Source of the DNA: a virus
Lineage: Duplodnaviria > Heunggongvirae > Uroviricota > Caudoviricetes
Length of the DNA: 5,487 nt
Strand: one strand, 5' to 3'
IMG/VR virus record: IMGVR_UViG_3300029521_000124
A program made the position numbers and the translations under genes. Position 1 is the first letter of the stretch. Each line of letters begins with the position of its first letter. Below, one piece after another: positions 4,824 to 5,487 of this stretch. The notes beneath the pieces were generated by a model. The model was not told where the DNA came from and made no database searches. It saw nothing but the letters and a program-made list of their open reading frames with translations.

Positions 4824-5198
4824 ATGGAATTTAAAGATTTACCAATGCCATTCCAGGAAATGGCAGCGAATGTGGTTCGCTCTCAACTGGCGACTCTTGA
4901 CCTGAGTACCGTAGAAAAAGAAACCATCGACAATATATCCGGTAACGTACGCCGAGCCTTTATCGGGCTGTACGAAGAGAAGCAGCTCTCTGATAACCAG
5001 GATTTACATGAAAAATACTTTCTGGAATTAATGGACATCATTAATAAAGGATTTGGCTTGTTAATGAAAAAGAAAGGGATTCGAATAGCTCCCCTTGAAA
5101 ATCATTTTACAGCAAGCAGTATTAATTCCTGTGATTTAAAGCATCACACATCCGATGGGAAAGTTGAATCAAACAACAAAATATCAATTAATCATTAA
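4824..5198 (+). CDS. Hypothetical protein, 124 aa, unrecognised; last gene of the DicA-controlled plus-strand operon within the window
   Basis: ATG at 4824 with GAGG 6 nt upstream, 22 nt after the ydfC stop. No motif I recognise. The 3' third (from about 5040) is markedly AT-rich compared with the 5' part. Confidence 0.6.
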   Translation: MEFKDLPMPFQEMAANVVRSQLATLDLSTVEKETIDNISGNVRRAFIGLYEEKQLSDNQDLHEKYFLELMDIINKGFGLLMKKKGIRIAPLENHFTASSINSCDLKHHTSDGKVESNNKISINH

Positions 5199-5219
5199 TT
5201 TATTCACAGGTGAGGTAGA

Positions 5220-5487
5220 GTGCGTGCGCCGGACACGGATAAGAATCCGGCACTGACAGTTTACTGAAAGGATATTTCCATGAAAAGTCAGACCATAACG
5301 CGAAAGCGCACGGCGAGGTAGCTGGTTCATAGATAGCCTGTCGTTAAATTTTCGTCGACCGTGCGCTTCCGGTTGTGACACTCCGCGAAATGGCGCGGCG
5401 GTAAGTATGACGGGGTTATTCCTTCCCCGTTGAGGACACCGGGTTGTCAGGTTGACCATACGCTTAAGTGACAACCCCGCTGCAACG
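5220..5487. other. GC-rich, inverted-repeat-dense segment of unresolved nature (structured RNA or mobile-element end, or the 3' end of a convergent gene that starts beyond the window)
   Basis: Tandem GTGCG at 5220-5228; hairpin 5228-5233/5246-5251; perfect 10-bp inverted repeat 5304-5313/5359-5368 (45-nt loop); hairpin 5410-5415/5425-5430; perfect 9-bp inverted repeat 5441-5449/5469-5477. No plus-strand ORF; one minus-strand frame is open to the window edge. Confidence 0.3.

Follow-up and report, generated by a model that had tools for sequence, protein, structure and literature searches.

The question raised by this locus is what kind of element closes the window, by which we mean the whole stretch of 5,487 nucleotides of viral DNA analysed here. 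Composition changes abruptly towards its end, from a GC content of 0.31 over positions 5000-5214 to 0.54 over 5215-5487, a jump that a sequence-only reading had placed near 5215. The GC-rich segment 5220-5487 begins on the plus strand with a tandem GTGCG (GTGCGTGCG, 5220-5228), directly followed by a perfect 6-bp hairpin (GCCGGA/TCCGGC, 5228-5233 with 5246-5251). The three further perfect or near-perfect inverted repeats reported for it are all present: one of 13 nt with 92% complementarity (5301-5313/5359-5371), a perfect one of 6 nt (5410-5415/5425-5430) and a perfect one of 9 nt (5441-5449/5469-5477). The segment holds no plus-strand ORF of at least 50 aa. The sequence-only reading took it for a structured non-coding RNA region rather than coding sequence, a general suspicion that proved correct, and listed as candidates a group II intron, a retron msr/msd RNA, the terminus of an insertion sequence (IS) or other mobile element, and a convergent minus-strand gene.

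The segment is very probably the untranslated spacer within dicBF, an early-left operon carried by a Qin-like lambdoid prophage; it is the source of DicF in the polycistronic RNA. In a genome search, positions 5100-5487 match E. coli chromosomes at 100%. In the source genome, NZ_CP023142.1 (L001), the segment is surrounded by a lambdoid prophage immunity and early-left region: upstream lie, in this order, a Cro/CI-type regulator, a LexA-family repressor, ydfA (DUF1391), ydfB, ydfC and a gene of 124 aa; downstream follow 540 nt without annotated gene, dicB, a DUF1482 (ydfD-like) gene, IS4, an exonuclease, an excisionase and an integrase. An Rfam scan of the gap places DicF (RF00039) at L001 9405-9456, with 76.7 bits and an E-value of 1.2e-16. 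Measured from the window end, its 5' end (position 5504 in window numbering) lies 17 nt downstream, and dicB 153 nt downstream. The Qin prophage of E. coli K-12 MG1655 has the equivalent order ydfC, dicF, dicB, and its ydfC-dicF spacer aligns with approximately 5207-5487 of the window at about 96% identity; in K-12-type strains, identity is 95.9% over 99% of 5216-5487. Among 5426 complete E. coli genomes, 4417 carry the segment, in up to eight copies each, and its position inside the dicBF operon is fixed across thousands of them, K-12 Qin included. No promoter-like site was found inside the segment. The locus itself is the already known DicF precursor region, ordinary in identity; this accounts for the hairpins and disposes of the intron, retron and IS proposals.

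Compared with K-12 dicBF, the segment occupies the same operon place, shares about 96% identity over 5218-5487, is directly followed by canonical DicF and dicB, and has in common the stem with the published RNase III cut. The two differ at about ten points, including G to A at 5410, which weakens one pair of a pseudoknot and extends the helix H2 (both described below). They also differ in the 124-aa gene, placed here between ydfC and the spacer and missing from that position in K-12. This gene (4824-5198, plus strand; WP_000394528.1, hypothetical protein) matches PHROG 6937 with an E-value of 5.7e-78, a family whose function is listed as unknown; its first 60 or so residues also match three further PHROGs. 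It is AT-rich, with about 30% GC in its 3' half (5000-5214), and homology to K-12 starts at about 5207, directly past its stop codon. Only 460 genomes have the junction between gene and spacer, against 3503 with most of the spacer. The step in GC around 5207-5215 is therefore a mosaic or recombination joint, at which an AT-rich accessory gene abuts a conserved cassette, and no intron or IS boundary. The 124-aa gene looks like an accessory gene ('moron') inserted into the early-left operon. DicF has been described in a review as derived from the ydfC 3' UTR (PMC9438474); because the 124-aa gene intervenes, the spacer is not directly a ydfC 3' UTR here.

That the segment is a group II intron 5' end, a retron msr/msd RNA or an IS end, a view with nothing in its favour other than the likeness of GTGCGTGCG to a GUGYG start, the inverted-repeat density and the sharp GC boundary, can be set aside with near certainty: no group II domain I-VI structure (domain V included) and no retron RNA is detected, Rfam giving the segment no match at E<=1 either within the window or within the surrounding 2.1 kb of the source genome (L001 8000-10100), no reverse transcriptase is encoded within 9 kb downstream, where the genes run from dicB to the integrase, the place in the dicBF operon is fixed as described above, and the nearest IS (IS4) lies past dicB and the DUF1482 gene and is missing from other copies. 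The tandem GTGCG is not conserved either: many homologues have GTGGTCGTGCG or GAGATCGTGCG there and homology extends upstream of it. Its resemblance to an intron 5' end is due to chance. As a separate observation, CGUGCGCCGG is kept even where the preceding sequence varies.

It is also very improbable that a real protein gene on the minus strand (ORF 5184-5474) has its 3' part here. The frame does stay open to 5487, as had been noted, and runs beyond the window end to give an ORF of 105 aa with a TTG start in the source genome. It is intact in a subset of relatives as well, and some phage records carry a hypothetical protein annotated over the region. However, single-base indels or stops disrupt this frame in many copies of 95-98% identity, and it has no Pfam or PHROG match. 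No RefSeq gene lies beneath any of the 40 E. coli matches listed. The substitutions, moreover, track the pairing of a plus-strand RNA, and the H2 helix of that RNA changes in length by steps that are not multiples of three. On the plus strand, a 13-codon mini-ORF (MKSQTITRKRTAR, 5280-5321) with AAGGA seven bases upstream was considered and rejected as a conserved gene: it is probably no gene at all, because its ATG start is replaced by CTG in K-12 and most homologues.

The sequence-only reading had further called the hairpin density unusual. The structure is borne out by comparison of homologues; the density stands out weakly in this sequence alone. The fold energy of the segment gives z-scores of -2.3 for the plus strand, where 3 of 200 shuffles fold equally well, and -3.1 for the minus strand. 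Of 100 other 268-nt intervals of the stretch, 19 contain an equal count of perfect 6-bp inverted repeats. This count is a non-discriminating statistic, and the evidence for structure is comparative.

Relatives were collected by searches of phage, plasmid, viral-contig and genome collections, and 62 of the 113 loci having a match carry the whole segment. The 5' part of the conserved spacer, as delimited by the K-12 alignment (5207-5293, plus strand), holds GTGCGTGCG, the GCCGGA/UCCGGC hairpin and a second hairpin region at 5253-5291. It is followed on the same strand by a long irregular stem, module A (5294-5377), whose strands 5294-5316 and 5355-5377 form 21 bp in minimum free energy (MFE) folds and whose tip (5317-5354) is hypervariable. 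Stem A pairs CAUAAC.CG.AAGCGCACGGCGA with UCG.ACCGUGCGCUU.CC.GGUUGUG. It is predicted by MFE folding in 46 of 46 unique variants, in which 98.4% of the cells over the 21 basal pairs are standard pairs. Its substitutions affect one partner of a pair at a time, most of them creating or removing a G-U, and none is compensatory. Support for stem A is therefore thermodynamic and comes from the K-12 cleavage data, not from covariation.

In K-12, DicF is derived from the polycistronic dicBF RNA: RNase III creates the 5' end of a stable 190-nt species, which accumulates in stationary phase, and RNase E creates the 53-nt DicF (PMC10448788). The 3' end of DicF is provided by its own intrinsic terminator. 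In the same study there is no evidence of an internal promoter for DicF, and both terminated and read-through transcripts occur (PMC10448788). A sequence given in its supplementary figure, from GGUAGCUGG to the end of DicF, corresponds to the window from 5318 onward. Counting 190 - 53 = 137 nt upstream of 5504 puts a putative RNase III cut at C5366^U5367 on the plus strand, midway along the 3' strand of stem A; this placement derives from the published 190-nt length and the K-12 mapping. Module A would then be the RNase III substrate of the DicF precursor. Just 3' of the putative cut, the plus-strand heptamer GGUUGUG (5371-5377) serves two ends, as part of the 3' strand of stem A and as part of the 5' strand of the helix closing the next domain, and the two pairings are mutually exclusive. 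We also note that CGUGCGC occurs twice, at 5223-5229 and 5360-5366. GCGCACG (5306-5312), in the 5' strand of stem A, is complementary to both copies, which gives this strand an alternative partner upstream.

That next domain, module B, is a multi-helix RNA domain of about 115 nt (5372-5486), recognised among the relatives by eye and afterwards tested formally; all its elements lie on the plus strand. Its closing helix P1 (5372-5378/5480-5486) joins GUUGUGG with CCACAAC or CUGCAAC. Inside are H1 (5383-5387/5394-5398, CCGCG with CGCGG), H2, composed of a base at 5399-5402/5438-5441 (CGGU/ACCG) and a variable stem at its tip (5411-5415/5425-5429), and H3 (5442-5449/5469-5476, GGUUGUCA with UGACAACC), topped by an inner helix at 5450-5452/5462-5464. 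A pseudoknot connects GUAUGG (5405-5410) with CCAUAC of the H3 loop (5456-5461). The H2 tip stem differs among homologues, which have CGGGG/CCCCG, CUGGG/CCCAG, CGAGG/CCUCG, CCCGGG/CCCGGG, CAGGG/CCCUG or CAGGUG/CACCUG. H3 of Izhakiella consists of GGUAACCA with UGGUUACC. In phage P1 the pseudoknot is formed by GCAUGG with CCAUGC, and P7-like copies have a U-G intermediate: the pair concerned is U-A in 79 sequences, U-G in 3 and C-G, the form of phage P1, in 3.

Two alignments carry the case for this structure, which was drawn from the tested sequences themselves. In a MAFFT alignment of 24 representatives not fitted to structure (A2), 92.5% of the cells are paired, compared to 32-53% in slid controls, and 11 pairs are changed on both sides; at most 1 of 500 shuffles matches the observed values. 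In the alignment of 87 matches (85 distinct) to the covariance model R1 (A3), which is additionally model-fitted, 96.0% of the cells are paired against 32-55% in slid controls, 12 pairs have changes on both sides, and none of 500 shuffles matches the observed values. The model itself hits the 87 loci with 88-151 bits. At some fixed pairs G-U cells are found in, for example, 82, 58, 52 and 46 sequences; since these would be A-C mismatches on the other strand, it is the plus strand that acts as RNA. The 5' body of the 190-nt precursor is hence not arbitrary sequence, being a covariation-supported pseudoknotted domain.

Module B alone is the novel lead at this locus. It has no Rfam match in the window, in the 2.1 kb of the source genome or in ten related loci, where the only matches lie elsewhere (DicF, sub-threshold STnc100, tRNAs, C4 and isrK), and it is not described in Rfam 15 or in the searched literature, a scope to which the possibly relevant P1 genome paper did not belong. 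Its outline loosely resembles a cloverleaf, yet ARAGORN finds no tRNA or tmRNA in L001 9000-9700, and this candidate was dropped. In three loci (L031, L056 and L101), CGCGAAA of the stem A 5' strand is fused directly to CGCGAAA of H1, removing the remainder of stem A together with the 5' strand of the closing helix, in what looks like a short-repeat deletion.

Module B is not confined to the DicF context. Without module A, it is found in the ban-operon leader of P1 and P7, starting about 35 nt past the annotated P1ban promoter; the P1 record labels part of it 'dicF-like region'. It stands without module A also in the cdtI phage, CPS-53-like prophages, Salmonella phage F1055 and the 'Actinobacillus' phage pPE4, and it is present in genomes of Citrobacter, Trabulsiella, Erwinia tracheiphila and Izhakiella. 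Conversely, module B is missing from PhiR5_2, where module A and a DicF-like RNA are both present; module B is accordingly not strictly needed for such a small RNA. A second pattern scan of the viral contigs, for the different H3 loop GCGCGGCGGNAAGNATGG, returned near variants and chance matches only.

The P1/P7 ban leader has module B in common with the segment. Its copies score 96-104 bits against the model, the pseudoknot as well as H2 and H3 have undergone compensatory changes, and as here, a short RNA with an intrinsic terminator comes next. The leader differs in that module A and the DicF sequence are missing and the closing helix is different or absent, and also in its setting, about 35 nt from a C1-controlled promoter versus about 1 kb into the operon here.

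The slot 3' of module B is occupied by at least eight distinct small-RNA-like sequences, of which canonical DicF is the commonest. The variants were taken from twelve loci (L003, L004, L005, L006, L007, L009, L010, L022, L045, L047, L078 and L101). They end in a GC-rich hairpin and U run, except in Trabulsiella (L022 and L043), where the sequence was read up to 127 nt. Apart from canonical DicF, a single variant reaches the Rfam threshold. Several variants share AUUGCUGUGUGUAG, a motif unlike DicF. Qin-type lambdoids and P1 thus retain module B while swapping the small RNA behind it.

How might the two modules work together? In the long operon RNA, stem A would form and be cut by RNase III at C5366^U5367. 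The short duplex left over could then dissociate and free GGUUGUG, allowing module B to close, a putative switch between the two mutually exclusive pairings. Module B would become the compact folded 5' body of the stable 190-nt RNA and protect it, and it may hold the AU-rich linker, which is single-stranded, in place so that RNase E cuts precisely and the 53-nt DicF is released. Module B would then act as a stability and processing scaffold. Other small RNAs derived from 3' UTRs are likewise cut from a longer mRNA, have their own terminator and carry structure just upstream of the cut (PMC9438474); their structures are simple stem-loops, whereas here a pseudoknotted multi-helix domain and two nucleases acting in sequence would be involved. 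The scaffold model is compatible with the stem-loop-guided processing of such small RNAs. If module B is functional, it would explain the stability of the long DicF form, and it would offer a handle for finding new phage small RNAs through their common scaffold instead of their variable seeds.

Another possibility, which we consider improbable, is that module B acts in trans, for instance by binding or titrating a host or phage protein. The functional product would then be the whole 190-nt RNA, with DicF as just one of its exchangeable modules. The 190-nt species is indeed stable and accumulates in stationary phase, and the sequence of module B, above all its H3 loop GGUUGACCAUACGC, is kept across Escherichia, Citrobacter, Trabulsiella, Erwinia, Izhakiella and P1-type phages, with a varying small RNA. 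The pseudoknot, however, already accounts for part of this invariant loop.

Less improbable, though still unlikely, is a cis-acting role in transcription control, as an antiterminator comparable to HK022 put or as a riboswitch-like leader. Module B would decide between a stop at the intrinsic terminator of the small RNA and reading on into dicB, kil or ban, the small RNA being a by-product. The layout fits, for in all contexts read a small-RNA-like sequence lies about 10-130 nt past module B, with early genes beyond, and it has the hairpin and U run terminator in all but the two Trabulsiella loci. The promoter is close in P1 and P7, and in the cdtI phage module B stands about 275 nt past a strong promoter-like site that follows cI, an interval in which no N-like gene is annotated. 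A pseudoknotted junction with a nearly invariant loop also exceeds the needs of a spacer, and K-12 has both terminated and read-through transcripts. On the other hand, the Qin-type module B is about 1 kb from its promoter, behind three or four genes, and our data suggest no ligand or factor. Like module B, put is structured and precedes terminators in an early operon of a temperate enterobacterial phage, but by its published description it is an RNA of about 70 nt with two stem-loops and a triplex, near the PL and PR promoters (PMC9378689); module B, with its closing helix, three hairpins and pseudoknot over about 115 nt, is built differently, and the two showed no similarity in sequence. Nor was a conserved pairing between module B and the terminator found. 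In the MFE fold of the 190-nt RNA (L001 9268-9457), the DicF terminator does engage module B, its 3' half pairing with the module's 5' half in place of H1, H2 and the terminator; the idea of a riboswitch-like antiterminator pairing was dropped when this complementarity could not be seen by eye in the cdtI-type, L010-type and P1-type cassettes.

Returning to the scaffold and its alternatives together, we tentatively propose that module B belongs to an undescribed class of structured phage RNA with a specific function of its own, not a mere precursor sequence. The class may consist of a pseudoknot-locked multi-helix junction of about 115 nt placed directly before interchangeable, terminator-bearing small RNAs, within early operons of lambdoid prophages and P1-type phage-plasmids of Enterobacterales. 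Its function could be read-through control, protein binding or that of a dedicated maturation platform; the idea of such a class is plausible to us, if short of our favoured expectation.

The operons that harbour these cassettes show some further peculiarities. In phage vB_Apl-pPE4 (L005 1590-1780), recorded as an Actinobacillus phage yet equipped with E. coli-type DicA, YdaT and Kil genes, the cassette is tandemly duplicated, the repeated part starting with the closing helix (3' strand) and including the terminator. Sub-threshold matches to STnc100, a Salmonella small RNA family, score 28-43 bits against a gathering score of 47. Several prophages have them between dicF and dicB, and P1 and P7 have them upstream of tciA/terB; examples are L001 9454-9672, which lies outside the window, L003 2842-2961 and L008 2910-3025. 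The matches hint that such operons contain another conserved RNA element. Finally, in one E. coli prophage (L009 1900-3067) dicB is interrupted by a Rha-family regulator gene, and the insert brings with it isrK (69 bits) and the C4 antisense RNA (78 bits), that is, an immunity module of the P1/P7 type inside the dicBF operon.
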